Source: Patescibacteria group bacterium | GTDB taxonomy: Bacteria > Patescibacteriota > JABMPQ01 > JAQVVF01 | Direction: 5' to 3' | Assembly: GCA_041662665.1 (NCBI GenBank) | Contig: JBAZSC010000004.1 | Coordinates: 10,464-74,463 of the forward strand | DNA length: 64,000 bases | In this document: piece by piece, positions 19,057 to 56,225 of the stretch | Position numbering within the stretch: position 1 is the stretch's first letter | Layout: each line of letters begins with the position of its first letter | Made by a program: the position numbers and the translations under genes | Notes under the pieces: generated by a model | The model's input: only the letters and a program-made list of their open reading frames with translations | What the model was told of the DNA's origin: nothing | Database searches by the model: none

Positions 19057-19075
19057 ATTTTTTTATTAAATAATA

Positions 19076-20452: not shown

Positions 20453-20564
20453 AAGTAATTCTATAACTCCAAAAATAATCTGTCAAATGTGGATTATTTT
20501 GTTAATTTTTGTTATCATAAATTTAGTTTAAATTATAATAAATATTAATTAACACAGTTACTGA

Positions 20565-21162: not shown

Positions 21163-21166
21163 GTCT

Positions 21167-26000: not shown

Positions 26001-26050
26001 TATTTTATTTTAATTAACTTTTAACTTTAGATTTTAGACTTTTAACTCAC

Positions 26051-27895: not shown

Positions 27896-27951
27896 AATTT
27901 TTTTGTTTTAAATTTTTAAATTTCTGAAACTAAATTTATATAAATTATATA

Positions 27952-29802: not shown

Positions 29803-29874
29803 AATTTTTTTGTTTTTATTCCACCAAAGTTCCGCAGAACGTAGGTGGATTAATTTTTAAAAACTTAAAATAAA

Positions 29875-31686
29875 CTATTTTATTCCAATCCCAAAAGTCC
29901 TTTTGCTAAAAGAAATTGGAGAATCAATTATTAAAGTAAAAGTTCTCTTTTTTAAATTTAAAGTTGCAAATGAATTTTTCCACTTTTTCTTTAATTTATT
30001 GTAATATAATAATTTCAAATCACTTTGTTTTAATGTCTTATTATTCTTTTTTAATTTTTTGAATTCTTTTTTAGAATAATTAAAAGTCACTTTTAATCTG
30101 AAATTATTCTTGGCTTTTTTATAAGTATATTTATTTAAATCATCTGTCACTAGCCAATATTTTTTTAATAGCTTATTTTTGTCTATTTTCTTAAAATAGT
30201 TACTGAATAATTTTGATTGAACAAAATATTTTTCTTTTTTTAAATTTTTTGGATATTTTGTCATTACAAAATTCAAATCTCTCGCAGAATAAACCTTGCC
30301 TTGCTTTTTCAACAAAACTTCATTAACTTTTCTAGCCTTTTTTGTTACAAATTTTGGATTTTTAATGTATCTAATTGTCTTTGTTAAAGCACCTGATTCA
30401 GCAAACCATTGATCTCTGAAATTGACATAAACTGTTTTTGTTCCATCAACTTTTGATAAAGTAAAAATCTTTGATGTATCATAAGCTTCCCAATTTGCAT
30501 TTGCAAAATCAGCATTTTCAGAAATTATCATTTCAGTTGGACTGCCTGCTGAAGATAAAGACAATGCTACTGTTCTTAAGGCAGTATATGCTTTATTAGA
30601 ATTAATCTTTAAACTTGTATTTGTTGGTCCCATAGAAGCAGCGTATTTTAAATCGCCATTTGTATGATCCTGATAAGCAATATGAATTCTATTTAGATCA
30701 TCAACCTTAATTGAAGTTTGAAAACCTAAAATTAAAGTATCGCTTCCTTGATCAACAATATATTTCTGAAAGGTTCCTGAAATATTTGTCGCATATTTCA
30801 AAGAATAATTTGGATAACCATCATGATAACTAATATGAGCATAATTATTTTTATCCAAGCTCAAACTAGAAAACATTCCAGTCAATCCTCCTGCTAAAAC
30901 TGCAGTATCAATTGTTGTTTTCTGCCAACTTCCAGATAAATTTGTAATATATTTCAAAGCTTGCACTCCGCCATCATAATAGCTAACATGCACTTTATTA
31001 TTTGTATCAACAGCAATTGAAGAATATTGTCCAACTCCTCCATTATCAATTGCTGAGCTTAAAAAAGATCCTGATTCATTTGTTGCGTATTTTAACCATT
31101 GATTACTGCTATCATAATAGCTAATATGAGCTTTGCCATTTGAATCAACTGCAATTGATGTATTGCTTGTAGAAGATAATGTTTCTACATCGTAGAAAAA
31201 CCAAGTTCCAGATGACTTGATTGCATATCTAACTTTTGATCCATTATAATAGCTAATATTCAATCGATCACTTGAATCAATCGCCATATCCACAAAAGTC
31301 CCGCCCAAAGCATCTAAAACAGAATTTCCCCAATTTCCTCCAGCATTTGTGGCATATTTCAAATCATCATTTACAGCATCATAATAAGCAATATGAATTT
31401 TGTTCGCTGAATCAACCACTAAAGAAGGATAAAGCCCAACCATTACTGAACTCTCGTCAATTATCGTAATTTGAAAACTGCCAGAACTATTAGTCGCATA
31501 TTTTAATTTACCATCACCAAGATATGCAATATGAACATATCCTAACGAATCAACACTAATTGATGTTCCATCTCCAGCAAAACCAGTTGCATCAACTGTT
31601 GTTTTTTGCCAATCTGCTGCCAACACAGTATGACCAAACAACATCAGGCAAAACATTGCCACCAAAATTAATAATTTCTTTTTCAT
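29875..31686 (-). CDS. Secreted repeat protein, paralog 5 of 6 (more divergent)
   Basis: Signal peptide, LKYATN repeats, beta module and a lysine-rich tail ending FGIGIK. Confidence 0.75.
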   Translation of the reverse strand: MKKKLLILVAMFCLMLFGHTVLAADWQKTTVDATGFAGDGTSISVDSLGYVHIAYLGDGKLKYATNSSGSFQITIIDESSVMVGLYPSLVVDSANKIHIAYYDAVNDDLKYATNAGGNWGNSVLDALGGTFVDMAIDSSDRLNISYYNGSKVRYAIKSSGTWFFYDVETLSSTSNTSIAVDSNGKAHISYYDSSNQWLKYATNESGSFLSSAIDNGGVGQYSSIAVDTNNKVHVSYYDGGVQALKYITNLSGSWQKTTIDTAVLAGGLTGMFSSLSLDKNNYAHISYHDGYPNYSLKYATNISGTFQKYIVDQGSDTLILGFQTSIKVDDLNRIHIAYQDHTNGDLKYAASMGPTNTSLKINSNKAYTALRTVALSLSSAGSPTEMIISENADFANANWEAYDTSKIFTLSKVDGTKTVYVNFRDQWFAESGALTKTIRYIKNPKFVTKKARKVNEVLLKKQGKVYSARDLNFVMTKYPKNLKKEKYFVQSKLFSNYFKKIDKNKLLKKYWLVTDDLNKYTYKKAKNNFRLKVTFNYSKKEFKKLKKNNKTLKQSDLKLLYYNKLKKKWKNSFATLNLKKRTFTLIIDSPISFSKRTFGIGIK

Positions 31687-31763
31687 GATTTTCCCTCGTC
31701 CGCCATGCTTCTTCGCTTAAGCGAAGAGCGAAGGCGGATATTAAATAGTAATTATTTTAAAAT

Positions 31764-33614
31764 TTATTTTTTTCCTATTGCATAATAAATTTCATTCCAA
31801 GATATCGGCGAAATCAAAGTGATAGCAAATGTCCTATTTTTCACAGAATGTACGGCATTTAAATTATGCCATTTCTTTTCTTTAACATTATAATATTTTA
31901 AAACCAAACTACTTTCTGACAAACCTTTATTTCTATTTTTTAAAGTCTTGAATTGCTTTTTTGTATATTTAAAAACAAATTTAGTTTTAAAATTATCAGC
32001 TAATTTATATTTATTAAAATTACCTTTTATTTTCCAATATTCTTTAATCAAATTTTTCTTGGCTGCAATATAAGTTTTTGAATATTTTCTATATCTTTTT
32101 ACTTGCCAAGAATATTTTGCTTTTTTCAAACCTTTTGGCAATTTCAAAAATTTTAAATAAAATTTTTGAGCAGTATATTTTTTATTTTTCTTTTTTATTA
32201 AAATTTCTTTGCTTTTTGCATTTTTTGTTACAAAAGTTGGATTTGGCAAATATTTAATTGAATCAGAAACAGTTGCTGATTCCGCATACCATTGATCTCG
32301 AAATTTTACATAAATAGTCTTTTTGCCAACCCTAGAAGACATTTCAAAAACTTTATTCACATTATATGTTTCCCATTCTGCTCCAGCAAAAGTAGAATAT
32401 TCAGACAACATCATTTCTGTTGGATTGCTAGTTGCAGATAAAACCAAATCAACATCTTTAAAATTTGTATATTTTTTACCTGCTTCTATTACAACTTCTG
32501 GACTTATTGGACCAAGTACATCAGCAAATTTTACTTCACCATCCCAAGGAGAATAAGTATGCAGATAAAATAGACCAACGTAAAGTCTGTTTGAAGAATC
32601 CATAGCCAAAGAAATTGGCTGTTCAGCTGTATGAATTGCATCTCCAATATCACTAACAGCTACAGTTGAAAAACTTGTCCCAACATTATTTGCCAGCTTA
32701 AAATCAAAGTTATCCACATCATAATATCCAATTCTTACTCTTGAATTGCTATCAACTACTAGAGAAGAATATATTCCAACATCTCCAGCAGTATCAACTG
32801 TCGAATTTGACCAATAGCCCAACATATTATTTGCGTATTTCAAATCTCGATTCCCGCGATCATAATAACTAATATGAACGAAATCACTATCGTCAATTTT
32901 TATTGAACTAAACTCACCAACATTACCGCTATCAACGGTTTGAGCCACAAAATTTCCAGAAGAATTTGTAATATATTTTAAAGATAGATTTGCCGAATCA
33001 TAATAACTGATATGGACTTTATTGTAATCATCAACAGTTAATGAAGAAAATAGTCCGACAAAAGTACTACTGCTATCTATTGTTGATAATGTAAAACCAG
33101 TTCCATTAGAATTTGTTGCGTATTTTAAATCGTCATTTGTTAAATCATAATAACTAATATGCACATAACCTAATGAATCAACACCAATCGAATCATACAT
33201 ACCAACTTCGCCTGTTGTATCAATTGATGATGCTGCCCACACTCCAGAAGCATTAGTCGCATATTTCAAATCAGAATTAGCATAATCATAATAACTAACA
33301 TGCGCCTTATCATTATAATCTATTGCAATTGATGGATACTGTCCCAAACCAGAACCAAGATCAATTGTTTCACTCACAAAACTGCCAGATGCGTTTGTTG
33401 CATATTTTAGATAATAAGTTGCACCAGTTGTCTCTAAATAAACCAGATGCGCTTTGCTATTTGAATCCAAAGCAATTGCCACAATAGGACCAACACCTAC
33501 TCCTCTCGACAATGACTCAAATTGCCAATCCGATGCCTTTGCTTGACCAAAAAAACAAAAGACACAAGACAACGTTGCAAAAACCACTCCTAAAATTAGA
33601 GATTTTTTTCTCAT
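31764..33614 (-). CDS. Secreted repeat protein, paralog 6 of 6 (more divergent)
   Basis: Signal peptide, LKYATN repeats and a lysine-rich tail ending YYAIGKK. Confidence 0.75.
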   Translation of the reverse strand: MRKKSLILGVVFATLSCVFCFFGQAKASDWQFESLSRGVGVGPIVAIALDSNSKAHLVYLETTGATYYLKYATNASGSFVSETIDLGSGLGQYPSIAIDYNDKAHVSYYDYANSDLKYATNASGVWAASSIDTTGEVGMYDSIGVDSLGYVHISYYDLTNDDLKYATNSNGTGFTLSTIDSSSTFVGLFSSLTVDDYNKVHISYYDSANLSLKYITNSSGNFVAQTVDSGNVGEFSSIKIDDSDFVHISYYDRGNRDLKYANNMLGYWSNSTVDTAGDVGIYSSLVVDSNSRVRIGYYDVDNFDFKLANNVGTSFSTVAVSDIGDAIHTAEQPISLAMDSSNRLYVGLFYLHTYSPWDGEVKFADVLGPISPEVVIEAGKKYTNFKDVDLVLSATSNPTEMMLSEYSTFAGAEWETYNVNKVFEMSSRVGKKTIYVKFRDQWYAESATVSDSIKYLPNPTFVTKNAKSKEILIKKKNKKYTAQKFYLKFLKLPKGLKKAKYSWQVKRYRKYSKTYIAAKKNLIKEYWKIKGNFNKYKLADNFKTKFVFKYTKKQFKTLKNRNKGLSESSLVLKYYNVKEKKWHNLNAVHSVKNRTFAITLISPISWNEIYYAIGKK

Positions 33615-37330: not shown

Positions 37331-37465
37331 TTTTGGCCACGAAAAACATTACTTTTTTTTCATGACTAAACAGCTTAGCATATTATATTTCGCCTGTCAA
37401 TACTTTTTGCTATAATATAATACGAATATGCAAATCTATGCAAATAATACGAATATACAAATTCG

Positions 37466-37505
37466 TATATTCGCAACATTTGCATAAATTCGTATATTTG
37501 TATTA
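37466..37505 (+). promoter_or_regulatory. Conserved about 40-nt promoter-like block upstream of ruvB
   Basis: gtatattcgcaacatttgcataaattcgtatatttgtatta ends 5 nt before the ATG at 37511. Confidence 0.5.
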
Positions 37506-37510
37506 CATAA

Positions 37511-38533
37511 ATGATAAAAAACACAACACCAAAAATCATCGCACCAGAAGAAAAATTAGAAGACAAAGCTCTTGATTTTACCTTAAGACCAAAAAAATTA
37601 GATGAATTTATTGGCCAAAACAAGCTAAAAGAAAACCTCAAGATCTTAATTCAAGCTGCAAACATGAGAAAAGAACAAATTGATCATTTGTTACTTTATG
37701 GCCCTCCTGGTACTGGAAAAACAACACTTGCCAACATTATTTCTTGTGAAACAAACGTCAATATCAGAGTCACTTCAGGACCAGCCTTAGAAAAAGCCGG
37801 AGATCTAGCTGCCATTTTAACAAACCTAAAAGATAATGATATTTTGTTTATTGATGAAATACACAGAATGAACAAAAACATTGAAGAAGTCCTTTATCCT
37901 GCCATGGAAGACTATTCTTTAGACATCGTTCTAGGCAAAGGTCCTTCTGCCAAAACAGTCAGATTAGATTTGCCAAAATTTACTCTTATCGGCGCAACTA
38001 CCAGAATTGGTTTATTATCATCACCTCTTCGCGATCGTTTTGGTGCAATTTATCATTTAGATTTTTATGAAGATCACGAATTAGAAAAAATTGTCACTAG
38101 ATCAGCCAATATTCTAAATATAAAAATTGAAGCTTCGGGTTCATCAGAAATCGCTAAAAGATCTAGAAAAACTCCTCGAATTGCCAACAGATTATTAAAA
38201 CGAGTTCGCGATTTTTCTCAAGTAAAATCAGATGGTACAATTACTCAAGCAACTGCTAAAAAAGCTTTAGATTTATTAGAGATTGATAGCTTAGGATTAG
38301 ATGCCGTTGACCGCAAAATTTTAATGACTATTATCCAAAAATTTAATGGCGGACCAGTAGGTATTAAAACAATTTCTCAATCAACTGCCGAAGAACAAGA
38401 TACATTAGAAGAAGTTGTTGAACCATTTTTATTGCAACTCGGTTTTATCAATCGTACAGCCAAAGGCCGAGAAACAACCAGTCTTGCTTATCAACATTTA
38501 GGCATTACTAACATCAAAGAATGGAAAAAATAG
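37511..38533 (+). CDS. ruvB: Holliday junction branch-migration helicase RuvB
   Basis: [11 protein letters not shown] Walker A, DEIHRMN Walker B and the RuvB C-terminal winged helix. Confidence 0.95.
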
Positions 38534-39395: not shown

Positions 39396-39518
39396 TTTGG
39401 CAGAAGAATCTTGAATCTAGAATTTGGAATCTAGAATGAATAATGAATTTAGAATACAGAATTCTCGATTCTAAATTCCAAATTCTATTCCAGATTCTAG
39501 ATTCCAGATTCTATATTC
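39396..39518. repeat. Inverted oligo-repeat element (gaatctagaat words)
   Basis: ttgaatctagaatttggaatctagaatg is paired with cagattctagattccagattctat. Confidence 0.6.
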
Positions 39519-39526: not shown

Positions 39527-40570
39527 ATGTCCACAAAACTTTCAGACTACGACTACAATCTTCCACAAAAACTAATTGCCCAAACACCAGCTTCTCCAAG
39601 AGACAAAGCACGTCTTTTAGTTTTGAATCGAAAAAATGACAAGATTTTTCATCACAAATTTTTCGAAATTGACAAATTTTTGAAAAAGGGCGATGTCATA
39701 GTTTTAAATAATACCAAAGTCATTCCAGCCAGATTATATGGCAAAAAAGAAACCGGCGGTAAGGTCGAAATTTTATTATTAAATCCTGTAGCGACAGGGC
39801 ACTGCCCTGTCGCGGTCTGGTCGTGTCTCACCAAGCCAGGCTTAAAACCAAATACTAAAATAATTTTTAATAACAAAATTTCTGCCAAAATAATTTCTCG
39901 TGAAAATGAAAAAGCAACTATAGAATTTGATTTAAACAAAAAACAATTTAACCAATTTTTAAAAAAATCTGGCAATGTCCCATTACCTCCATACATCTCA
40001 CCAAAACAAAAAAACAATAAAACAAAAAAACAATACCAAACCGTTTTCGCAAAATTTGATGGTTCTGTCGCCGCTCCAACTGCTGGTCTTCATTTCACGA
40101 ACAGATTAATCAAAAAATTAAAAAATAAAGGTATTAAATTTGAATATATAACTTTACATGTCGGTTTAGGCACTTTTCAGCCAGTCAAAGAAAATGATAT
40201 TACTAAACACAAAATCCATTCAGAATACGCTGAAATTTCTGCACAAACCGCTAAAAACTTGAACAATGCAAAGAAAAAAGGCCATCGCATTATCGCTTGT
40301 GGAACAACAGTAGTTCGAACACTCGAAGCCGCAGCAATTAACAATTTAGCAATTAAACAATTTAGCAATAATACATCAATTTTTATCACGCCAGGCTATA
40401 AATTCAAATTCGTTGACGCGATGATCACGAATTTCCATTTACCAAAATCAACACTATTAATGTTAATTTCTGCTTTTTCTAATTTAAAACAAATTAAAAA
40501 AACTTATAAAGTCGCCATAAAAAACAAATACAAATTTTATTCTTTCGGTGACGCAATGTTAATATTGTAA
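39527..40570 (+). CDS. queA: S-adenosylmethionine:tRNA ribosyltransferase-isomerase QueA
   Basis: MSTKLSDYDYNLPQKLIAQTP N-terminus typical of QueA. The start is assigned to the ATG at 39527. Carries an in-frame GC-rich palindrome at 39786-39833. Confidence 0.85.
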   Translation: MSTKLSDYDYNLPQKLIAQTPASPRDKARLLVLNRKNDKIFHHKFFEIDKFLKKGDVIVLNNTKVIPARLYGKKETGGKVEILLLNPVATGHCPVAVWSCLTKPGLKPNTKIIFNNKISAKIISRENEKATIEFDLNKKQFNQFLKKSGNVPLPPYISPKQKNNKTKKQYQTVFAKFDGSVAAPTAGLHFTNRLIKKLKNKGIKFEYITLHVGLGTFQPVKENDITKHKIHSEYAEISAQTAKNLNNAKKKGHRIIACGTTVVRTLEAAAINNLAIKQFSNNTSIFITPGYKFKFVDAMITNFHLPKSTLLMLISAFSNLKQIKKTYKVAIKNKYKFYSFGDAMLIL

Positions 40571-40582
40571 AACAAATTTTAA

Positions 40583-40618
40583 ACTAATTTTCCGACGCTC
40601 TGACGTTCTGACGCTCTG
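40583..40618. repeat. 8-nt tandem microsatellite, about 4 units of CTCCGACG/GACGCTCT
   Basis: tccgacgctctgacgttctgacgctctg. Confidence 0.7.
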
Positions 40619-40620
40619 AT

Positions 40621-40648
40621 TTTCCGAAATAAAAAAGAGCCCATTAGG
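40621..40648 (-). terminator. Terminator of island gene A
   Basis: The minus-strand RNA forms agaguccuaaugggcucu followed by U6. The identical sequence recurs at 41431-41458. Confidence 0.65.
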
Positions 40649-40666
40649 ACTCTATAAAAAAGAGCT

Positions 40667-41203
40667 TCAGTTCATCTTCATCCTGTAAGCTTCACAAACC
40701 TTGAAAGTCAGACTTCCCCGAAAATCATAATAGTTGGTAGCACGCTTGCCATTTCCATTCACTGGCAAGTTTTCATAATCGTAAAAAGTTGAATCGTCAA
40801 TGTGACTCAACGAAATCTTTCGAGCCATTTTGCGATTCACATTGATTGCAGTCATCATTCGACCCTTGTATCGCTTCGGCCGATGTCCACCGATCAACCG
40901 CTCAGCGCGACGATTGTCTTCACCAACCTTCACGCCAACAGTCAACAGATGACGCCGCCTCAAGTTCGAATAAGGAGTGCCATTCCCACGTTCACCATGA
41001 TGTTTTCCAGTCCCGGCAACAGGCTTGCCCCGAACCGGATCTCTCATCCATTCCATCACATTCTTCTTCTCTTCACGCTTCCTTTCCACTTGCTTTCGCA
41101 CTTCTTCGTCATACGACATCCTGTTCTCAATTTCTCTTCTCTGATAGTCTCTGTCAGCAGTATTCTTGTTTGCAACACAAGCAGTATCTCGATGAATGCC
41201 CAT
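40667..41203 (-). CDS. Island protein A, hypothetical (AGTGKHHG-motif family)
   Basis: Start reassigned to the ATG at 41203, preceded by ggagggaaagag (SD). The ORF-track N-terminal extension (TTG start at 41311) contains the sigma70 promoter. The product is charged and R/K/E-rich. Confidence 0.6.
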   Translation of the reverse strand: MGIHRDTACVANKNTADRDYQRREIENRMSYDEEVRKQVERKREEKKNVMEWMRDPVRGKPVAGTGKHHGERGNGTPYSNLRRRHLLTVGVKVGEDNRRAERLIGGHRPKRYKGRMMTAINVNRKMARKISLSHIDDSTFYDYENLPVNGNGKRATNYYDFRGSLTFKVCEAYRMKMN

Positions 41204-41273
41204 CTCTTTCCCTCCACGCGCCTGTTTTTCCAGGCTGTTCGTCCCTCCACGACACCAGAAAACAGAATAAAAC

Positions 41274-41301
41274 ATTATATCACAACCATATAATTTGTCA
41301 A
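41274..41301 (-). promoter_or_regulatory. Canonical sigma70-type promoter of island gene A (TTGACA-N16/17-TATAAT)
   Basis: The minus strand reads ttgacaaattatatggttgtgatataat. Confidence 0.65.
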
Positions 41302-41378
41302 GATTTTTCAATATTTAAGCTTATTTAAAACAAAAAAACTACAAACATTTCCGAAAATCTGACAATCAGAAGCTCAGA

Positions 41379-41428
41379 AGTCTGACGCTCCGACGCTCCA
41401 ACGCTCCGACGTTCCCACGTTCCCAAAT
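41379..41428. repeat. 8-nt tandem microsatellite (CTCCGACG)n, about 6 units
   Basis: gtctgacgctccgacgctccaacgctccgacgttcccacgttccc. Confidence 0.7.
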
Positions 41429-41430
41429 AA

Positions 41431-41458
41431 AAAAGAGCCCATTAGGACTCTACAAAAA
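41431..41458 (-). terminator. Terminator of island gene B (identical to that at 40621-40648)
   Basis: aaataaaaaagagcccattaggactct. Confidence 0.65.
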
Positions 41459-41477
41459 GGTACAAATTACAAATAGT

Positions 41478-42248
41478 TCAATCGAATACAACTGGTACGA
41501 ACCCACCCTGATTGTGCCAAGGCATATGCTCTCCCATCGCAAATCCGAAAGGATCTTCAAACCGACGATCTTCCAGATCCTCAATCTTTGGAACCTTCCA
41601 ATTCGAACTCCGATCTGTAACAACTCGATTCAGCTTAGGATCGAACATTCTGAATTGAAGCCCATCTTGACTGAAAAGATCCGCATTGAAATGGATTCCT
41701 CCATTCCTATCTTCTGCATCTTCATCTTCATCATGTTCATCAAACTGCTCAAAACTCTTCCCATCAGAAGAATTGTCATCATCTTCACAATCGTCTTCAT
41801 CCTTATCATTCACATCATCAGCACAAATGTAAGCAACAGCCGGTTCAGGCACATCGTTGATAGTCTTTTTCTTTGAAATGGCCACAAGTTCCTCAATCGT
41901 AACCTGATGCTCTTCCCTGAATTGCCGATCGATCTCAGCTTCCCATTCCTGAATGGTCGAATCATCAGCTTCACTCAAAGTCATCTTCCTCAAAACCAGA
42001 TCACGATGTTCACTTTCCATATCATGCACACCCTTCGGCTGTTTCGTTCCAATCAACCTTGTTCCACACTTCAAACGAATTGTACAAGTTGATTCACCTT
42101 GTCCAGAATCACCATGATGCTTTCCAGTTCCAGCAATTGGAAAACCCCTTTCCGGAGCAATGTAAGTTCGCTTCTCCCCTTTCTCTGCAAGTTCGTTCAG
42201 CCTCATCGTATGATAAACACGCTTCTGATCCTTGGACAACCGAGCCAT
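41478..42248 (-). CDS. Island protein B, hypothetical paralog of A (AGTGKHHG motif) with a long poly-acidic tract
   Basis: Start reassigned to the ATG at 42248, preceded by gcggagggaaagagaa (SD). Shares RGFPIAGTGKHHGDSGQG and RLIG with protein A. Contains the acidic stretch DDVNDKDEDDCEDDDNSSD...DEHDEDEDAED. Confidence 0.6.
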   Translation of the reverse strand: MARLSKDQKRVYHTMRLNELAEKGEKRTYIAPERGFPIAGTGKHHGDSGQGESTCTIRLKCGTRLIGTKQPKGVHDMESEHRDLVLRKMTLSEADDSTIQEWEAEIDRQFREEHQVTIEELVAISKKKTINDVPEPAVAYICADDVNDKDEDDCEDDDNSSDGKSFEQFDEHDEDEDAEDRNGGIHFNADLFSQDGLQFRMFDPKLNRVVTDRSSNWKVPKIEDLEDRRFEDPFGFAMGEHMPWHNQGGFVPVVFD

Positions 42249-42372
42249 TTCTCTTTCCCTCCGCGCCACCAAAACTTCTTGTTTGGTGGTCGTTTTCCCG
42301 CTTTTTTCTCTTGCGGGTCCCATCGATCTCGTACCCAAAATAACATAGAACTAACCAGAAATATAGCATTTT

Positions 42373-42401
42373 ATTCTATCATTAAAAAATAAAAATGTCA
42401 A
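42373..42401 (-). promoter_or_regulatory. Sigma70-type promoter of island gene B (TTGACA-N17-TAGAAT)
   Basis: The minus strand reads ttgacatttttattttttaatgatagaat. Confidence 0.6.
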
Positions 42402-42467
42402 TAGAAATCAAAAATACCAACTTTTTGGCTTTAAAAAGACAAGAAAAATATCATAAATTTGAGTGGT

Positions 42468-42546
42468 GGCGTTCTGACGATCCAAAGCTCCCACGCTCCG
42501 ACGCTCCGAAAGTCCCACGCTCCGACGCTCCCACGTCCCACGTTCC
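42468..42546. repeat. 8-nt tandem microsatellite, about 9 units (CTCCGACG/CTCCCACG)
   Basis: gttctgacgatccaaagctcccacgctccgacgctccgaaagtcccacgctccgacgctcccacgtcccacgttccc. Confidence 0.7.
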
Positions 42547-42548
42547 CA

Positions 42549-42580
42549 AATAAAAAAATGGCATCAAAGCCATTAAATAA
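42549..42580 (-). terminator. Terminator of island gene C
   Basis: The minus strand forms aatggctttgatgccatt followed by T7. Confidence 0.6.
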
Positions 42581-42587
42581 AGAACAA

Positions 42588-42941
42588 CTACAACTTTTTT
42601 GCTTCTACTCTTCTTTCAATTTCTCGCCTTACAGCCGACAACACACCTTGAGGCATCAGCTTCGAATCAAAATTCGTCCAACGAAAAATTTCAAAACCTA
42701 CTTTGATTTCACCCAAAGCAATCACTTCTCTCGCAATTTCCAACCTTTTCTGCAAATAATCCAAATCTTCCTTTCTGCACCATCCTCTCCTTTCAAATCC
42801 AAATTCATCAAAACCCCAGTCTGCCAAAACATCATCTGGATGATCAAAAAAATCTGTTTTGTGATCACCCTCGAAAGGATAAAAAACAGTACCACGCCTA
42901 ACAAAAATATCATTCAATGCATACTTCCGACCCTTATCCAT
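42588..42941 (-). CDS. Island protein C, hypothetical 117 aa
   Basis: Strong SD aaaggagagg 5 nt from the ATG; a 7-bp GC hairpin in the leader. No recognisable domain. Confidence 0.55.
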   Translation of the reverse strand: MDKGRKYALNDIFVRRGTVFYPFEGDHKTDFFDHPDDVLADWGFDEFGFERRGWCRKEDLDYLQKRLEIAREVIALGEIKVGFEIFRWTNFDSKLMPQGVLSAVRREIERRVEAKKL

Positions 42942-42994
42942 TTCCTCTCCTTTGCCTGTCTCCCCCTTTTGACAGGCTTTTTTTGCACCTTAAA

Positions 42995-43022
42995 AGTATA
43001 TCAAAATTTTTCATAAAGTCAA
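42995..43022 (-). promoter_or_regulatory. Sigma70-type promoter of island gene C (TTGACT-N16-TATACT)
   Basis: The minus strand reads ttgactttatgaaaaattttgatatact. Confidence 0.55.
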
Positions 43023-43052
43023 TATTATATTATAATCATAATATCAAAACCC

Positions 43053-43081
43053 TTGACTTTAAATAAAAAAGATATTATAAT
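43053..43081 (+). promoter_or_regulatory. Sigma70-type promoter of island gene D (TTGACT-N17-TATAAT), divergent from the gene C promoter
   Basis: ttgactttaaataaaaaagatattataat, followed by the SD aagggggg 5 nt before the ATG at 43118. Confidence 0.6.
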
Positions 43082-43117
43082 CAACCGTTCGTTCTCTTGA
43101 CAACAAGGGGGGAAAAA

Positions 43118-43918
43118 ATGCCTCCATTCAGCCAAACAAGATTAAATATCAACAAAATGCTTTTTGAACGAAAATGGTTTCAAAATACTGATGCTAATAT
43201 CGTTCAAAAACTCTTCAATTTGCCTGAAGCTTGTAATGGTTTTTTGGAAGATCTAGCAATTCGTCCTGAACAAATTGGCAAATGGACACTTTCCAAAATC
43301 TCTGAAATCTTCATTCCATTCAATGAACGTGCCTGGAACATTTACATCGTTTTTGAAATCAAAAATCAGAATGATGAAATCAGTCATTTCCAATACCATT
43401 CTTGGCAAAAAGGACCTTCGTCTGGAGTCAAAGGCATTGTTTTGATCAAAGATAAGACTTCTGGAAAAATCTCACACTTTGTTTTATTACAAGGCTATAA
43501 ATTTGGAGCAGGAGTACTAACTTTCGATTGTATTGGTGGCTTTGCTGAAGATGGTGAAGAAAATGAAGCCGGAATGACACAACGATTCCGCACTGAAATG
43601 AAAGAGGAGCTGGGACTTCCAACCTTGCCTCCTCATCAAATTGTTTCTCTTGGCAGATTTAATCCAGATGCTGGGATTTCCAATAACAGACCTTTCTTGA
43701 TGGTTGCAATTGTTTCTTCTGAACATTTGCCATACATCGAAACATCAAATCTCCCTAATCCAAGCACATTTGAAAACGTTGCAAAAATCATTGTTCCAGT
43801 TTCCGAACTTGCAAGATTTGTTGACAATTGCGAAGACTCGTTCTTTCATGTCTGCATTACCAGACTTTTAGCCAAAGGCATTACTCTTTCCACCAGCCCC
43901 ATCTCAACTCACCCTTAA
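43118..43918 (+). CDS. Island protein D, hypothetical with a degenerate Nudix-like box in its C-terminal half
   Basis: GGFAEDGEENEAGMTQRFRTEMKEELGL approximates the Nudix box GX5EX7REUXEEXGU with a one-residue shift. Start at the ATG after the G-rich SD. Confidence 0.45.
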   Translation: MPPFSQTRLNINKMLFERKWFQNTDANIVQKLFNLPEACNGFLEDLAIRPEQIGKWTLSKISEIFIPFNERAWNIYIVFEIKNQNDEISHFQYHSWQKGPSSGVKGIVLIKDKTSGKISHFVLLQGYKFGAGVLTFDCIGGFAEDGEENEAGMTQRFRTEMKEELGLPTLPPHQIVSLGRFNPDAGISNNRPFLMVAIVSSEHLPYIETSNLPNPSTFENVAKIIVPVSELARFVDNCEDSFFHVCITRLLAKGITLSTSPISTHP

Positions 43919-43934
43919 GTGAGTTTTTTTATTC
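43903..43934 (+). terminator. Terminator of island gene D
   Basis: actcacccttaagtgagt followed by T7. Confidence 0.6.
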
Positions 43935-44101
43935 CTTGTCAACCGTAATGCCTTCAAAATTTAGTTTCAAAAATTAAGGGATTTAGAAAATAAGAAAATT
44001 AAAATAAATTCATATCATATTTTTAAGGCATGAAGGTTGAACAAAAAAATCGCAATAGCGATTTAATTTAGAGTTATTTAAATAAATAAAAGTTTATTTT
44101 T

Positions 44102-45469
44102 TCAATTTTCTTTTTCCGTTTTCAATTTTGTAATAATCATCAAAGCAATAATCAACCAAAATAAAATTGACAAATCATTTTTAAAATACGGCACATCAAC
44201 AATACCATGCATAATTATACAAACCATCGCACCCATCAAAGCAATTTCCAATTTCCAATTTCCAATTTCCAATTCTCCCATCCCAGTTTGTAATTTGTTG
44301 TTTGTAATTTGTTTGTTTTTTTGTTCTTTTGTTTTTTTGTTTTTTTCAAAACCTTGCCAAAAGAATAAAACTAAAATCCAAACAAAAGAAATTAATCCGA
44401 GCACCCCCGTCTCCACCCAAAAATTCAAAATAATATTATGCGGATAAACTAAAATTTCAGTATGCTTATTTAATTTATAATTTGGATAAGCTTTTTGAAA
44501 TCCAGCTAAACCAGCTCCAAAAATTGGATTTGCTTTTATTAAATTCCATGTTCCTTCCCAAAGAACAAGTCTCACATCGCCTGAAGTTTCTTGAAAAGTA
44601 ATAATTGGCACCACTTTTTTTGAAGTTACTGGAACTATCAAAATAGAAATTATCGAAACAATCGCCAGTCCAACCACCCACCATCTGAATTTCGTAAACA
44701 TCAGCATAAAAAACAATCCGATCAAAATTCCAAAAATCGCACCCTTAGACACAGCCAAGACAACTGCTATTACTCCTGCTAAAACAACCAAACAATAAAA
44801 CAATAAAACAAAAATCGACACAATTTGTTTTCTTGTTTTATTGTTTTCTTGTTTCATGCCGACAATCAACCCACTAAACAATACAACTATTGGTGCGACA
44901 TATAAACCGATCGCATTTGGATAATCAAACACGCTCGTTGCTCGTTTTAAATTTGGCAAATTATAATCTACTGGAATATTAATATTAAAAATGTATTGAA
45001 TAATCGCATAAACAGAAATAACTAATGATGACAAACCTAATGCCCACAAAATTAAATTTAATTGCTTTTTAGATCTTAAGACATCAAGCAAAATTAAAAA
45101 AACTAAAATTGGTTCTACAAAATATGCTCTAAATCTTCCCAAAGCATGTTTAAAATCAGCCGAAACAAAAACTGAAATTATCGCAGCCAGCAAAAATAAC
45201 AAAATTGGCAACCACCATTTTTTCAACAGTTCTCGCCAATTCGCAACAGTCTGCTTTATCTCTTTATTTAAAATCTTCTTAACAACAAAAATTAGAGTTA
45301 AAACTAATACCATCAATTCCAAAAATGTTGACGGCAATGGCCCAAGATTAAATCTCAACAAATACAATGGCATGGCAAAGACAACTAGACTTAATCCAAT
45401 ATCAACTCTTCGCCAACAAATAATGGCGTAAATAATCAATAGTGAAAATACAATAATTATGTTTAACAT
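44102..45469 (-). CDS. O-antigen ligase / Wzy-like polytopic membrane protein with an in-frame repeat insert
   Basis: 10-12 TM helices in Wzy_C-like topology. The repeat at 44243-44310 is translated in frame as KQITNNKLQTGMGELEIGNWKLEI. Confidence 0.55.
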   Translation of the reverse strand: MLNIIIVFSLLIIYAIICWRRVDIGLSLVVFAMPLYLLRFNLGPLPSTFLELMVLVLTLIFVVKKILNKEIKQTVANWRELLKKWWLPILLFLLAAIISVFVSADFKHALGRFRAYFVEPILVFLILLDVLRSKKQLNLILWALGLSSLVISVYAIIQYIFNINIPVDYNLPNLKRATSVFDYPNAIGLYVAPIVVLFSGLIVGMKQENNKTRKQIVSIFVLLFYCLVVLAGVIAVVLAVSKGAIFGILIGLFFMLMFTKFRWWVVGLAIVSIISILIVPVTSKKVVPIITFQETSGDVRLVLWEGTWNLIKANPIFGAGLAGFQKAYPNYKLNKHTEILVYPHNIILNFWVETGVLGLISFVWILVLFFWQGFEKNKKTKEQKNKQITNNKLQTGMGELEIGNWKLEIALMGAMVCIIMHGIVDVPYFKNDLSILFWLIIALMIITKLKTEKEN

Positions 45470-45518: not shown

Positions 45519-45626
45519 CCTAAACAAATTCAAAACTCAAATTTCAAATTCCAAAACATTGACGACGAGTTTTGAAAATTTTGATTTTGAGCATTTAGAT
45601 TTGTTTAGAATTTAGGATTTAGGATT
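45519..45626. repeat. Long inverted repeat (caaattcaaaa / tttggaattt-type words)
   Basis: Left arm cctaaacaaattcaaaactcaaatttcaaattccaaaac pairs with right arm gagttttgaaaattttgattttgagcatttagatttgtttagaatttaggatttagg. Confidence 0.65.
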
Positions 45627-45634
45627 TTCTAAAA

Positions 45635-48146: not shown

Positions 48147-48258
48147 AAATCTCAAATTACAAACAAATCTCAAATCACAAAGATACAAACTTTAAATCCT
48201 ATTTTGTAATTTGTCTTTTGTAATTTGTTTGGAATTTGGAATTTGGAATTTTCGTAAC
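48147..48258. repeat. Long inverted repeat, caaattccaaa family, overlapping the 3' end of the 48192-49766 gene
   Basis: Left arm ctcaaattacaaacaaatctcaaatcacaaag; right arm gtaatttgtcttttgtaatttgtttggaatttggaatttggaatt. Confidence 0.7.
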
Positions 48259-49766
48259 GCTAAATTCTGTCCAGCAATAATCAATCCAATCAAAAACCAA
48301 ATATGAATAATATATAAAGAAGAAAAAGTCATGTATTGAATTAAAATTCCAGCAAATGCAACTGTCAGTCCGACAACCAAAGTTTTATCCATAAAATCAT
48401 CGCTCTTAAACCAAACTTTCAGCGTTCTAAAAAAGATAAAAAATATCATTGCCAAAAAAATCAGCAATCCAAAAATTCCAGTCTCTGCCCAAATTTCTAA
48501 AAATTCATTATTTACAATTGCCCAACCATTCTTTGGAATGGAAATTGGACCTTGCGCTACCTCTGGTCCAAAACCTCCAATCCCAACTCCCAAAATCGGA
48601 TTCCTCTGAATCAAAAACCATGCCTGTTTATAAGTTGAATATCTTTCTTCAATTGATGCACCTTCTTCAAATTCTGTTGCTTGAGCTGTAAAATTTTTAA
48701 TATTTACATCTTTCCTTGTAAATTTTAATAAATATATTGTCGATACAATTGCAATTATCGCAATCGCCGCAATTATAATAATTCTTTTCGGCGAAAAAAA
48801 AGATTTAAAATAAAATAATGCAAACAAAACCAACATTCCAGCAAATCCCAAATAAGCACCGCGCGAGACCGTCAAAACCAAATTCAAAACCATCAAACCA
48901 AGTATTACAAATAACACAATTGGCGCACTCAAATTTAGAAGCCGGTTTGTTTTATTGTTTTTTTGTTTTTTTGTTTCTTGCCCTAAAATCAAACCATTGT
49001 CAATTTCATCTTGTTTGCCTCGTTTTCTACTCAATATCATCGCCAAACATATTCCCAAAGGAATTAACAAAAAGTTACCAAAATATAATGGCTCAGAAGA
49101 TGTCCCTTGAATTCTTGGAAAACCGAATACTTGTGATGTATATATATCTCTCAAACCTGTTATTTCTTTTGGAATACCAATCATATCTCCGACAAATTGA
49201 AAAAGTCCATAAATAGACACTACTAATCCAGACAGCAATATCACCCAAACAATTTTTTTAAATAATTCTTTTGAATTAATCAAGCTTGGAATAACTAATG
49301 CCACCAGCATTACAAAAAAATTAAAACCTAAAATTGTCAAACTTCTTGAAATATTTTGAGCATTAGCTAAAGATAAAACAGAAACGCCAGTAAACAAAAA
49401 AACAAAAATTATTAATGGATTTTTAACATAATTATTTTTTTTCTTTGCCAAACTAACCAAAAAAAATGCAATCAAAGTTATCAACGCAAAAACTTGTGAA
49501 ATTCTCACTGTCATACTTCCCATTTCAAACGATCCTAATCTTTCAAAAGGCAGAAAAAAAGCGACTAAAAATAAACCAAAATAAGGTTTTTTAAAAATTG
49601 CCAAAGAAAGCCCAATAAAAATCATCGCACCAACCAAAAACAGAAAAACAGATTTATACTGATCATTTACTAAAACTCCAGTAATAGCGCAAACAACTAA
49701 AACAACCAAAGTCTTAATTAAGTTTTCTTTGCTAAAAATATTCAGTTTTTCAATTGCTTCAGCCAT
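48192..49766 (-). CDS. O-antigen ligase / polymerase (Wzy)-like polytopic membrane protein; C-terminal tail encoded by a repeat element
   Basis: At least 10 TM helices. The last about 20 aa (KFQIPNSKQITKDKLQNRI) are encoded by the inverted repeat. Confidence 0.55.
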   Translation of the reverse strand: MAEAIEKLNIFSKENLIKTLVVLVVCAITGVLVNDQYKSVFLFLVGAMIFIGLSLAIFKKPYFGLFLVAFFLPFERLGSFEMGSMTVRISQVFALITLIAFFLVSLAKKKNNYVKNPLIIFVFLFTGVSVLSLANAQNISRSLTILGFNFFVMLVALVIPSLINSKELFKKIVWVILLSGLVVSIYGLFQFVGDMIGIPKEITGLRDIYTSQVFGFPRIQGTSSEPLYFGNFLLIPLGICLAMILSRKRGKQDEIDNGLILGQETKKQKNNKTNRLLNLSAPIVLFVILGLMVLNLVLTVSRGAYLGFAGMLVLFALFYFKSFFSPKRIIIIAAIAIIAIVSTIYLLKFTRKDVNIKNFTAQATEFEEGASIEERYSTYKQAWFLIQRNPILGVGIGGFGPEVAQGPISIPKNGWAIVNNEFLEIWAETGIFGLLIFLAMIFFIFFRTLKVWFKSDDFMDKTLVVGLTVAFAGILIQYMTFSSLYIIHIWFLIGLIIAGQNLALRKFQIPNSKQITKDKLQNRI

Positions 49767-49892
49767 ATATAAACTTATCCATATTTTATCCCATTTTTAA
49801 CATTTTAGCAATTCGAAAAAACATTCGCTTTATTCGCAAATTCATTCGAGTGAGCAACAAAAAAAGAGCACAAAATGCTCAAAAAAGTTCTA

Positions 49893-51477: not shown

Positions 51478-51700
51478 TGTCATCCTGAACCGCAGTGAAG
51501 GATCCCGTTGCTAAATAAATAATCACGGGATTCTTCGGCTTCGGCCTCAGAATGACAATATCTAAAAATATATTTTTCTAAAAAAATAAAAACAGATATT
51601 GGCAAAAATTATTTTTTTCTGAAGGCGAGGATTGTCTGAGCCCCGAACCGCAGTGAAGGGGCGAGTTCCGCAGCCTGAAGAAAAAAATAATTTTTGACAA
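51478..51700. other. Two GC-rich structured elements sharing gaaccgcagtgaagg, separated by an AT-rich spacer
   Basis: tgtcatcctgaaccgcagtgaaggatcccgt...acgggattcttcggcttcggcctcagaatgaca and ctgagccccgaaccgcagtgaaggggcgagttccgcagcctgaag. Confidence 0.4.
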
Positions 51701-51725
51701 TCAACACAAAACATCTTTTTCAACA

Positions 51726-53180: not shown

Positions 53181-53318
53181 TCGTTTAAAAAACTAAAAAT
53201 ATAAAAATCACTAACTCATATTATCATTTTTTCTATGCAACAGCAAACAAAAAAGAGCAGAATGCTCTTAATTTCTAATTTCCGAATTTTTATATTTTTA
53301 ATTTTTTATATCCGTACG

Positions 53319-53882
53319 CTATTCCGTATCTTTCATTACAACATCAGAAATCATCTCTTTTTGCTCAAGCTTTGCAGAAACAGGCTTACGTTGTTCTTCA
53401 CGTACTAAATCATCCTTCACAACAATAGCTTTTTTACTAATCGAAACAATTTTATCAAAAGAAATAATTAATTGGCCTTTAAACAATTTTCTTAAAAAAC
53501 CTGTTTTTACATACATTTTTTCAAGTCTATAAGAAATATCATCCATTTCAAAATCAACAACTTTGCCTAATTCTTCTCCACTCTCTGTTACAACATTATT
53601 ATCTTTGATTTTAATTTCTTTTTTCAAAAGTTCTTCAAACAAACCAAAATTATTTAATGGCTTTACTGACATCTCACTATCAACAAAAACATTTCCATCT
53701 CTAATTTCTTTTACATCTTCAATTCGTAAAATTCGCTGTTCTTTCAATAAACCTTCAGACAACTGAAAACCTAATAATTTTCCAGTTTCAAAATTAATTA
53801 TGAATTCATTTATTTTGCCAATTTCTTTATTGCTAGAAACAACCAAAATAGTCGCACCAATTGTCTCGTTGTAATCAATCAT
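53319..53882 (-). CDS. Hypothetical protein, possibly tandem PRC-barrel-like domains
   Basis: Two related halves of about 85 aa; weak PRC-barrel resemblance. Confidence 0.35.
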   Translation of the reverse strand: MIDYNETIGATILVVSSNKEIGKINEFIINFETGKLLGFQLSEGLLKEQRILRIEDVKEIRDGNVFVDSEMSVKPLNNFGLFEELLKKEIKIKDNNVVTESGEELGKVVDFEMDDISYRLEKMYVKTGFLRKLFKGQLIISFDKIVSISKKAIVVKDDLVREEQRKPVSAKLEQKEMISDVVMKDTE

Positions 53883-53884
53883 AA

Positions 53885-53962
53885 ACGTGAATTAAGAATC
53901 ATGAATTAAGAATTATGAATTTTATCATAATTCTTGATTCTTTATTCATGATTCTCGTGGCT
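53885..53962. repeat. Inverted oligo-repeat (gaattaagaatcatgaatt / aattcttgattctttattcatgattc)
   Basis: Related to the words at 21010-21162 and 35270-35330. Confidence 0.55.
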
Positions 53963-54446
53963 TAATTACTATTTTTCTATTCGGATCTTCGCCAATACTT
54001 TCTGTACAAACTAGCTCATTATTTGCCAAACACATATGAACAACTCTCCGCTCATAAGCAGTCATTGGTCTTAATACGATTTCTTTGTTAATTCGAACTA
54101 CTTTTTCCGCAGTATCCAAAGCTATCTTTTTTAAATATTCTTCTTTTTCTTGGCGATAATTATTCACATCAATGTAGAATGGAATTTCAGAAACGCTATT
54201 TTTTCTTTTTAAAAATACTTTTGCTAAATGTTGAATTGCAAATAAATTGCAGCCTCGCTGTCCAATCAAATAATTTGCATCATCAGCCTCAATATTCAAA
54301 CAAACAATTTCCTTTCCTTCTTTTTCGTCAATTCGAGCATTTGTCTTTCCATTGATTCCCATTTTCAGAATTAAATCTTCAACTACTCCTTTTACCTCCT
54401 CGATACTTGTTGCATTGATTTCATTCATATGTTTTAAAATAATCAA
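53946..54446 (-). CDS. jag: Jag/KhpB-type R3H RNA-binding protein
   Basis: KH-like domain plus R3H (LIGQRGCNL...; YERRVVH). Located downstream of yidC. Confidence 0.75.
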   Translation of the reverse strand: MIILKHMNEINATSIEEVKGVVEDLILKMGINGKTNARIDEKEGKEIVCLNIEADDANYLIGQRGCNLFAIQHLAKVFLKRKNSVSEIPFYIDVNNYRQEKEEYLKKIALDTAEKVVRINKEIVLRPMTAYERRVVHMCLANNELVCTESIGEDPNRKIVIKPRES

Positions 54447-54585
54447 TAATCAATTACCAATAATCAATAAATAATCAATTTCCAATAACTAAATAATCAA
54501 TAAAATCGTCGCAATTTTGATTATTAAATTATTGGTTATTGGTTTTTTACTGATTATTGAAATTTGATTATTGGTTATTTAAGCC
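54440..54585. repeat. Inverted oligo-repeat (aataatcaat / attgattatt words)
   Basis: aataatcaataatcaattaccaataatcaataaataatcaatttcc... lies opposite ...ttgattattaaattattggttattgg. Confidence 0.6.
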
Positions 54586-55286: not shown

Positions 55287-55302
55287 AGTTTTAAAAATTT
55301 AT

Positions 55303-55416
55303 AAATTACAAATCCCAAAATCCAAACAAATCCCAAATAACAAATTACAAAATATCTTTTGTGGTTTGTAATTTGGAATTTGTAATTTGTTTGGTATTTG
55401 AAATTTGGAATTTCAC
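55303..55416. repeat. Long inverted repeat, caaattccaaa family, overlapping the 3' end of yidD
   Basis: Left arm aaattacaaatcccaaaatccaaacaaatcccaaataacaaattacaaa; right arm tggtttgtaatttggaatttgtaatttgtttggtatttgaaatttggaatttc. Confidence 0.7.
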
Positions 55417-55671
55417 AGGTACGTTATCCACTCCGCCATGACTCCACGGATTACATCTTAACACACGCCAGCCAGCCAACAAAGAGCCTTTAAAAATTCC
55501 ATGTTTTTCAATTGCTTGATATCCATATTCTGAACAAGTCGGATGATATTTGCAAACACCATAAGGAAGATAATTAGATATTAAGCCATGATCAGGAGAA
55601 ATGGTTTTCTGATAAACTTTAATCAAAAGCAATAATGGCAATCTAAATATATACATAAATACAATTATCAA
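55345..55671 (-). CDS. yidD: Membrane protein insertion efficiency factor YidD, with a repeat-encoded C-terminal tail
   Basis: ISPDHGLI...[17 protein letters not shown]...RCNPWSHGG core. The C-terminal 23 aa ([23 protein letters not shown]) lie within the inverted repeat. Confidence 0.75.
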
Positions 55672-55790
55672 TTCACAATTACCAATTTACAATCAATTAA
55701 TCAATGATCAATAATCAATTTTCGACGAAGTTTTGTAAATTGTAAATTAGTAAATTTATTGAAAATTGATAATTGGTAATTGAAAATTAA
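55655..55790. repeat. Inverted oligo-repeat (caattatcaat / attgataattg words)
   Basis: caattatcaattcacaattaccaatttacaatcaattaatcaatgatcaataatcaatt lies opposite aaattgataattggtaattgaaaatt. Confidence 0.55.
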
Positions 55791-56131: not shown

Positions 56132-56225
56132 TATCTTAGTTCTAAAAGTTATAAAGTTATAAAGTTCGTAAAGTCCGTAACTTTATAAACTTTATAACTT
56201 TATGAACAGCACGAACTAACGCAAA

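Follow-up and report, generated by a model that had tools for sequence, protein, structure and literature searches.

How do genes of a very compact bacterial genome come to end inside repeated DNA, and why would several of its membrane proteins carry what looks like one and the same repeat-encoded peptide? These questions are raised by a 64,000-nt stretch (the window) of the 136,403-nt Patescibacteria contig JBAZSC010000004.1, which belongs to a metagenome-assembled genome (MAG), and in particular by a family of imperfect hairpins in it that are built from heptameric CAAATNN units, one of which lies between yidD and yidC and supplies the last codons of yidD. The window has a G+C content of ~30% and bears the majority of its genes on the minus strand; its gene content includes rnpA-yidD-yidC-jag, tsaD, tsaE, ruvB, queA and two Wzy_C genes, and the nearest matches of its proteins are proteins annotated as Patescibacteria. 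The answer that appears probable is that non-autonomous palindromic heptamer arrays are copied into, or expand at, tiny spacers, where, by displacing stop codons or causing them to be bypassed, they allow reading frames to extend into a stop-poor arm.

Heptamer hairpins and the reading frames that enter them

An earlier, sequence-only reading of this DNA had listed six such hairpins and placed the family in most intergenic gaps. Five of the six loci are real, strongly non-random hairpins, four of them with inverted-repeat arms of 35-52 nt that are 80-83% complementary and the fifth weaker (Table 1); the sixth, 44243-44310, forms no hairpin (-5.8 kcal/mol, z = -0.4 vs shuffles) and comprises two repeat blocks within coding sequence. 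The extent of the family had been overstated, given that CAAATNN hairpins occupy 5 of the 44 gaps of at least 40 nt, and long oligo-repeat hairpins of any word about 16 of the 44. On either strand, a copy consists of two to three CAAATNN units, AAAC, another two to three CAAATNN units, a loop and then the inverse, and the repeat periods found in the elements by Tandem Repeats Finder are 7, 11, 18 and 25 nt. For the mRNA-sense strand of 55298-55418, the folding energy is -39.2 kcal/mol, as compared with -18.1 ± 3.0 for shuffles (z = -7.0), the predicted stem being a series of 5-11-bp helices with 2x2 internal loops at the NN positions. The CAAAT positions are 93-100% conserved between arms, the NN positions 17-42% identical, and the leading, CA-rich arm is practically free of G and almost devoid of stop codons. 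Within the window, 47 occurrences of the word CAAATTCCAAA (at most one mismatch) were counted where 11.0 ± 3.5 would be expected, and five of the 23-nt architecture pattern CAAATNNCAAACAAATNNCAAAT, against none expected.

Of the ten hairpins that adjoin gene 3' ends, each either starts no more than 7 nt after the stop codon or shares 2-69 nt with the coding sequence. The element next to tsaD, for instance, begins 5 nt past the stop of the M23-peptidase gene and finishes ~5 nt ahead of the likely tsaD start, and the copy at 20349-20453 is the sole member of the family away from a gene 3' end.

What is the significance of the peptide that the elements encode? The three peptides quoted in the sequence-only reading are exact, and the elements do overlap coding sequence, as had been said of three unrelated proteins in the same frame; the hosts are, however, YidD and two paralogous proteins of the Wzy_C family (Wzy1 and Wzy2), and a common frame is expected with a chance of 1/9 and is uninformative. 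Since 7 cannot be divided by 3, a heptamer run passes through all three frames and spells the same peptide vocabulary in each of them, such that (CAAATTC)n yields the cyclic heptapeptide KFQIPNS, (CAAATTA)n KLQITNY and (CAAATCC)n KSQIPNP whichever frame is read. With an identical cyclic peptide in every frame, the shared ...KQIT..KLQ... motif is a matter of arithmetic, and the common peptide and frame are owed to the 7-nt length of the unit and not to biology. Whichever of the five elements is entered, and from whichever side and in whichever frame, a median of 21.5 codons is read before a stop.

That genes here end inside, or absorb, repeat elements is borne out. There is no upstream in-frame stop, and public gene calls keep the tails. 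The comparison with orthologs that the sequence-only reading had proposed for the YidD and Wzy ends supports gene-end remodelling, in that the depth of the stop is variable in YidD, an insertion of ~103 nt lies at the end of Wzy1 and the repeat-bearing loops of Wzy2 are hypervariable. This comparison drew on the syntenic loci L001, L004 and L143, with ~71-80% protein identity to the window, and on the short contigs L139 and L140; the YidD junction was compared across six genomes and YidD tails across 24 homologs.

In yidD, codons 85-108 (55348-55419) are read from the first arm of the element, the stop lies in the loop and 69 nt of coding sequence fall inside the element. Translation probably starts at Met6 (55656), five codons after the TTG start given in the open reading frame (ORF) list; the public call (JGI) has 103 aa. 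In all six genomes, the first arm of the hairpin begins directly past a conserved ...VP, and the heptamers differ between genomes. The in-frame stop is met in the first unit in L004 (tail EKF), in the centre of the arm in L001 (DNFKLKMTNAK), in the loop in the window and in the second arm in L140, where reading runs on through the loop. The resulting tails, of 3 to 24+ residues, are unrelated in sequence among the six genomes, and both length and sequence differ among the 24 homologs.

The final 19 codons of Wzy1 (48195-48251, KFQIPNSKQITKDKLQNRI) are read from the element that separates this gene of the O-antigen-ligase family from a VTT-domain gene, and the public call of 524 aa (MFA6296854.1) compares with 506 aa in L001, L004 and L143, where the protein ends in ...ALRKQNN* or similar. 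The Wzy1-VTT junction of these relatives measures 8, 6 and 5 nt, respectively, and carries no hairpin (L001: ...GCGTTAAGAAAACAAAATAACTAATTACATAAATG...), whereas in the window both flanks are kept and ~103 nt of canonical element replace the 9 nt at the ancestral TAA (CAAAATAAY).

Wzy2 (public call, 455 aa) bears repeats in two loops, both of which are hypervariable among orthologs of 71-79% identity and short in more distant orthologs. Loop B holds the decayed copy, and the same loop of the relative L141 has a canonical CAAAT arm (CAAACAAATTCCAAATTCCAAATTCCAAAC...) followed by (GGAAATT)n. Loop A holds a hairpin of another, 8-nt word (44782-44854), the A-rich arm of which codes for the hydrophilic loop KQENNKTRKQ and the T-rich arm for the start of a transmembrane helix, FVLLFYCLVVL, that is conserved in orthologs; this arrangement suggests that the A-rich arm could have arisen by inverted copying of helix-coding DNA. 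In the relative L142, loops A and B contain small nested G+C-rich palindromes (CCTGCC...GGCAGG) that add residues such as KPAYWSGRQ and may represent a second kind of mini-insertion at the same hot spots. As the tails are not conserved among orthologs, they give no sign of function and would seem to be neutral by-products, their translation and retention being predicted from the reading frames.

Table 1. Repeat elements, other hairpins and host genes of the window (positions in the window; arm length and complementarity under Details)
Feature	Positions	Strand	Arms and loop	Details
CAAATNN hairpin between yidD and yidC	55303-55413		arms 55303-55351/55365-55413, loop 55352-55364	49 nt, 82%
CAAATNN hairpin between Wzy1 and VTT-domain gene	48147-48252		arms 48147-48181/48210-48244	35 nt, 80%; lineage-specific insertion
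Diverged member, CTAAAT/CAAAT units	45535-45627			7 nt past PMT_2 gene stop; weaker fold at ~45535-45620
Member in divergent spacer between DHH-family gene and tsaE	20349-20453		arms 20353-20387/20408-20442	35 nt, 83%
Member between M23-peptidase gene and tsaD	10788-10898		arms 10788-10839/10847-10898	52 nt, 83%
Decayed intragenic copy, Wzy2 loop B	44242-44318	minus		CAAATTA/AAAC block, then (GGAAATT)n; encodes KQITNNKLQTGMGELEIGNWKLEI
yidD coding sequence	55345-55671	minus		PF01809 over residues 13-84 of 108-aa ORF
Wzy1 (O-antigen-ligase family) coding sequence	48192-49766	minus		61 nt inside element
8-nt-unit hairpin (other word), Wzy2 loop A	44782-44854	minus		31-nt arms, 90%
AAAGTTAT hairpin	56149-56205			rpmH-side junction of rpmH-rnpA-yidD-yidC-jag-PRC series
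CAATTAC hairpin, rnpA-yidD	55701-55783			relatives' gaps 9-21 nt
CAATAAT hairpin, yidC-jag	54437-54580			64-nt arms, 83%; 2-nt overlap with yidC stop
GAATTAA hairpin, jag-PRC-barrel gene	53872-53964			repeat supplies jag stop TGA; gap here 2 nt in L001 and L143
GAATTAT hairpin, entire tsaE-prsW spacer	20996-21172			contains last 9 tsaE codons and downstream start codon
AGAAAAC hairpin	3618-3673			2-nt overlap with PfkB-kinase gene stop
AGAATCT hairpin	39405-39512

A wider family and the origin of the elements

Is the CAAATNN grammar peculiar to this genome? A scan of GTDB contigs (one genome per species) with the 23-nt pattern recovered the CAAATNN/AAAC grammar in at least 120 loci from ~20 taxonomic groups; the counts that follow are among the matches listed, and the taxon labels are those of MAG record titles, with mis-binning possible for some. 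Arms come from Desulfobacterota (33), Patescibacteria (18), Aminicenantes (13), Planctomycetota (12) and Bacteroidota (11), further carriers are found in Acidobacteriota, Verrucomicrobiota, Omnitrophota, Chloroflexota and others, and the G+C content of the loci spans 0.29 to 0.66. Among these loci (L008-L127), one, L106, comes from a cultured isolate, Wenzhouxiangella sp. When 125 arms are aligned on the match, conservation extends past the searched bases (consensus AAATnnCAAATnnCAAgcaCCAAATnnCAAACAAATnnCAAATnnCAAtgaCCAAAAC); the arms have a sharp 5' boundary, a 32-nt super-period and the extra common units CAAGCAC and CAATGACC, the non-repetitive CAAGCAC unit occurring under labels from nine groups. 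The CA-rich arm stands ahead of the GT-rich one in 45 pairs and behind it in 1, and the flanking genes are co-directional in 41 cases, convergent in 10 and divergent in 1. The median distance from element to adjacent stop codon is 55 nt in this wider family, which makes direct coding overlap a feature of the compact Patescibacteria genomes.

How, then, could gene ends be rewritten? According to the explanation preferred here, the listed loci would be copies of a non-coding, non-autonomous palindromic element of CAAATNN units with an AAAC phase shift in mid-arm, five of them intact hairpins and one a decayed intragenic remnant. The original operon spacers of this very compact genome would have measured 2-20 nt, so that elements inserted in them, or grown there by unit slippage, would land on or beside stop codons. 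A gene losing or bypassing its stop would then read ~21 codons (median) of the open leading arm before a chance TAA, TGA or TAG, and every frame would supply the K/F/Q/I/P/N/S/T vocabulary, hence the stereotyped, lineage-specific tails on YidD and Wzy1; insertions within genes would persist only in tolerant loops, as in Wzy2. We infer that the elements have spread by copying rather than by selection as regulators.

Several observations weigh against this explanation. Neither a target-site duplication at 45 complete elements nor a parent element, cargo or mobilising enzyme around the wider-family loci was found, so that mobility is deduced only from presence or absence in relatives of ~75% identity. 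The copies of the window are not near-identical to one another and give no sign of recent copying, and one of them (20349-20453) lies between divergent genes. Moreover, many phyla conserve both the CAAAT word and the AAAC shift, which suggests a functional constraint and not pure junk. In favour of the explanation stands the lack of a linked gene: domain searches detected no transposase or reverse transcriptase among the window proteins, an all-vs-all BLAST of 580 ORFs neighbouring the wider-family elements returned no recurrent neighbour (best family in at most 5 of at least 120 loci), and only ordinary genes lie between the paired hairpins of L088 and L090. A phage, plasmid or other viral carrier is rejected, as phages and plasmids gave no BLAST match, though the low-complexity filter may mask the query, and IMG/VR matches numbered only 11.

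Might selection instead maintain the hairpins as cis-acting RNA or single-strand structures, e.g. stabilisers of intercistronic mRNA, RNase processing sites or binding arrays for a single-strand nucleic-acid-binding protein, with coding sequence overlapped merely as a result of genome compaction? Such a role, which would be compatible with the preferred explanation, is possible, if on the doubtful side. The yidD-yidC hairpin keeps its position in 6 of 6 genomes despite its differing sequence, divergent spacers are avoided in other phyla, and a 5-nt word and a phase shift are conserved over ~20 groups with a 2-nt spacer left free. These thoughts are in keeping with the transcript-stability or coupling roles proposed for the STRR repeats of cyanobacteria (PMC2670836) and with S1, Csp and CsrA as proposed binders of TAACTGA repeats (PMC4679880). 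Covariation at the NN positions is, however, absent, with matches if anything below chance: 10 of 90 dinucleotides are complementary, against 12.6 ± 3.0 expected, as are 53 of 180 single bases, against 64 ± 6. The conserved feature is a phased 5-nt word, not pairing. Likewise, there is no excess of G·U pairs in sense over antisense folds (95 vs 88, p = 0.66) and no strand bias. No Rfam family was matched either, with just two tRNAs above the gathering threshold in the window and, in related loci, only sub-threshold miRNA-precursor matches that reflect generic long hairpins. Finally, most junction hairpins are missing from close relatives with the same operon; the three syntenic relatives have hairpins at just two or three of the rpmH-to-PRC junctions, those at rnpA-yidD and jag-PRC are present in the window lineage only as compared with these relatives, and over the same 20 kb the relatives hold fewer such hairpins than the window.

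The elements could also arise and grow in place, with polymerase slippage multiplying a local 7-8-nt seed and intrastrand template switching making its inverted copy. Somewhat unlikely though it is, this origin would give each spacer a word of its own, and this is what is seen along rpmH-rnpA-yidD-yidC-jag-PRC, where a long hairpin stands at every junction and the word is different each time (AAAGTTAT, CAATTAC, CAAATNN, CAATAAT and GAATTAA, in this order). The lack of target-site duplication and of a transposase points the same way, as do the similarity of the ancestral Wzy1 end AAAACAAAATAAC to the element core AAACAAATTAC, the complementarity of an arm of the 44782-44854 hairpin to a conserved transmembrane-helix coding segment and the proposal that heptamer slippage is general in bacteria. 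Yet the same non-repetitive signature (AAAC shift, CAAGCAC, CAATGACC, sharp 5' boundary and 32-nt super-period) recurs in many phyla of 30-66% G+C, which independent local growth would not yield, and the Wzy1 insertion appears complete and canonical, with no intermediate in three relatives. On the whole, different words at neighbouring junctions and the want of duplicated flanks favour local growth, whereas the cross-phylum signature and the finished Wzy1 insertion favour copying.

A further possibility reaches beyond this genome. Conservation of a 5-nt word and its phasing rather than of pairing, a fixed arm order and no associated gene would together point to an undescribed, widespread cis-element. 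The CAAATNN/AAAC palindromes of ~20 groups, including Desulfobacterota, Patescibacteria, Aminicenantes, Planctomycetota, Bacteroidota and Acidobacteriota (host G+C 30-66%), would then constitute one family that acts single-stranded, is read in either direction by a conserved protein (e.g. of cold-shock-domain, S1 or Rho type) and spreads horizontally, gene-end remodelling being a side effect. This larger proposition is, for the present, unlikely.

Very improbable is the idea that the host proteins recruited the repeat-encoded tails and loops as functional modules, e.g. cationic membrane-proximal segments: each of the three hosts is a membrane protein, Lys, Asn and Gln abound in the tails, and the arms at 44782-44854 code for a hydrophilic loop and a hydrophobic helix, but the tails vary in length and sequence among orthologs, their composition is set wholly by the DNA unit, the soluble proteins TsaE and Jag are likewise overlapped by hairpins and the orthologs of Wzy1 function with no such tail. 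An artefact, whether from chimeric assembly at inverted repeats or from false ORF ends in gene calling, is barely credible, since, for all that palindromes and short repeats are classic assembly trouble and the TTG start of yidD is probably misplaced, an independent ENA assembly (the sole second one) is identical over 1768 nt that take in both Wzy2 loops and one element, hairpins stand at the same junction in syntenic relatives from other samples, no upstream stop interrupts the reading frames and NCBI and JGI agree on the gene ends.

Repeat elements that rewrite the 3' ends and loops of conserved genes represent a steady source of lineage-specific, low-complexity tails in ultra-small genomes with hardly any intergenic DNA. 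For Patescibacteria proteins, such tails can lead annotation, the clustering of orthologs and structure prediction astray, and the elements probably disrupt assemblies as well. The shared heptamer grammar extends an old question, namely why bacteria favour heptamers and how distant phyla come to share one word, for which the pattern CAAATNNCAAACAAATNNCAAAT provides a concrete search handle and Wenzhouxiangella sp. at least one cultured carrier.

Other hairpins and segments of the window

The same hairpin design is built from other words in many other spacers (Table 1). At 15034-15163, a hairpin with 58-nt arms and nested CTTTAG-type sub-hairpins overlaps the final three codons of a class-I aminoacyl-tRNA synthetase gene and is followed by a canonical, terminator-like stem, AAAAGACCG...CGGTCTTTTT. 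A spacerless inverted repeat with 58-nt arms lies upstream of ruvB (37404-37519), and a ATTCGTAT-type hairpin (19096-19158) stands at the end of a 600-nt region, 18586-19185, without an ORF of at least 80 aa. Two G+C-rich long hairpins at 51478-51701, in a 258-nt spacer, are unlike the oligo-repeat hairpins in design; around one of them lie 29-nt arms of A/T runs (51598-51626/51673-51701, 90% complementary).

The G+C content of 40000-44000 is 0.38-0.39, vs ~0.30 elsewhere, and this segment contains four ORFs without a Pfam match and G+C-rich octamer arrays (GACGCTCC) at 40594-40619, 41384-41423 and 42476-42548; a foreign origin, as an island with a repeat family of its own, is possible. On the minus strand, 24153-33614 holds five tandem paralogous ORFs of 603-616 aa with no Pfam match at E <= 1e-5.

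Relation to known repeat systems

Do the CAAATNN elements belong to a class already on record? A literature search with the literal repeat sequences retrieved no matching paper, and several identities can be set aside. Intrinsic terminators are rejected, as the elements are AT-rich, have no T-run and lie inside the rpmH-rnpA-yidD-yidC-jag operon between co-transcribed essential genes; canonical terminators with a GC stem and T-run occur elsewhere, at 53253-53269, 49866-49880 and 44047-44064. The elements behave as do miniature transposons of the MITE type insofar as their arms resemble long terminal inverted repeats, but no duplicated flank was seen at 45 complete elements and no autonomous parent was found. 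Integron attC sites and CRISPR are rejected on anatomy, the elements having no R'/R'' core sites and no spacer-repeat organisation. TIGR arrays consist of tandem guide units beside a Tas (Nop-domain) gene and have box C/D-like motifs (PMC12045711); the elements described here are dispersed single hairpins between housekeeping genes, with no array, box C/D motif or Nop-domain protein in the window.

Much closer are the heptamer repeats. The cyanobacterial STRR sequences (short tandemly repeated repetitive sequences) are 7-bp repeats that form hairpins between co-transcribed genes such as hupS and hupL; their function is unknown, a part in transcript stability or in translational coupling being among the proposals (PMC2670836). 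The (GGGANTN)n heptamers of Xanthomonas and the GGGGA(C/T)T heptamers of Nostoc combine fixed and free positions, include some inverted pairs and vary among close relatives at conserved junctions; in many bacteria, no long simple repeats are more over-represented than heptamers, with polymerase slippage as a possible cause (PMC4692102). The present elements share with them a 7-nt unit with fixed and free positions, a mostly intergenic location, the possibility of inverted arrays and variation in length and sequence between close relatives at one and the same junction. They differ in their word, CAAATNN (reverse complement NNATTTG) as opposed to CCCCAGT, TTGGTCA, CAACAGT, GGGAATC, GGGGATT or TAACTGA, with only the CAATGACC unit of the other-phyla versions containing TTGGTCA, on the reverse strand. 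They differ also in the AAAC phase shift, which creates super-periods of 11, 18, 25 or 32 nt, in being nearly always palindromic with a fixed arm order, in their ~30% G+C Patescibacteria host and in their systematic overlap with stop codons.

Overlap of this kind is itself on record for the TAACTGA direct repeats of marine Beggiatoaceae, Cyanobacteria and Bacteroidetes, which overlap the stop codons of upstream genes and encode protein ends, and for which the logic of a 7-nt frame has been discussed and horizontal transfer suspected, by a mechanism that is not evident (MacGregor 2015; PMC4679880). The likeness thus comprises one heptamer family across distant phyla, stop-codon overlap and coded protein ends. 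TAACTGA arrays, however, are direct, without predicted structure, mostly just upstream of start codons and furnished with forward stops in all frames, whereas the present elements are palindromic, have a stop-poor leading arm and stand at gene 3' ends.

Among palindromic families, the Rickettsia palindromic elements (RPEs) invite comparison by description only. In 2000, Ogata et al. reportedly described them as ~100-150 bp long, both intergenic and in frame within genes, to which they add tolerated, lineage-specific segments; the CAAATNN elements, too, are palindromes that occur between genes as well as in frame inside them, and are absent from orthologs (Wzy1 tail, Wzy2 loops). RPEs are not built from short tandem units, have family-specific consensus sequences and are typically internal insertions rather than replacements of stops; in view of their heptamer construction, the present elements are not expected to belong to the consensus families RPE-1 to RPE-10. 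MIRUs (mycobacterial interspersed repetitive units), according to what Supply et al. are said to have found in 1997, sit in operon intercistronic spacers with their ends overlapping the flanking stop and start codons; the operon-spacer site and the stop overlap are common to both, but MIRUs are 40-100-bp direct repeats with small ORFs and the present elements are heptamer palindromes.

The REP/BIME sequences of proteobacteria, which are short palindromes and non-autonomous, lie in extragenic DNA that is transcribed, at gene 3' ends or in operon spacers and rarely between divergent genes, and REPs near a stop codon can, as Liang, Rudd and Deutscher reportedly showed in 2015, affect translation termination. 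The wider CAAATNN family has the same placement, being an imperfect extragenic palindrome at gene 3' ends that is rarely found between divergent genes. REPs are, on the other hand, 20-40 nt long, carry GTAG as a conserved head and are found together with RAYT transposases, whereas the CAAATNN consensus contains no GTAG, no RAYT-like neighbour was found at the at least 120 loci or in the window, and the arms are 35-60 nt of heptamers. What is new, then, is the combination of word, palindrome with phase shift and host group; the behaviour of heptamer repeats and of palindromic elements, which the CAAATNN hairpins unite, has already been described in other bacteria.

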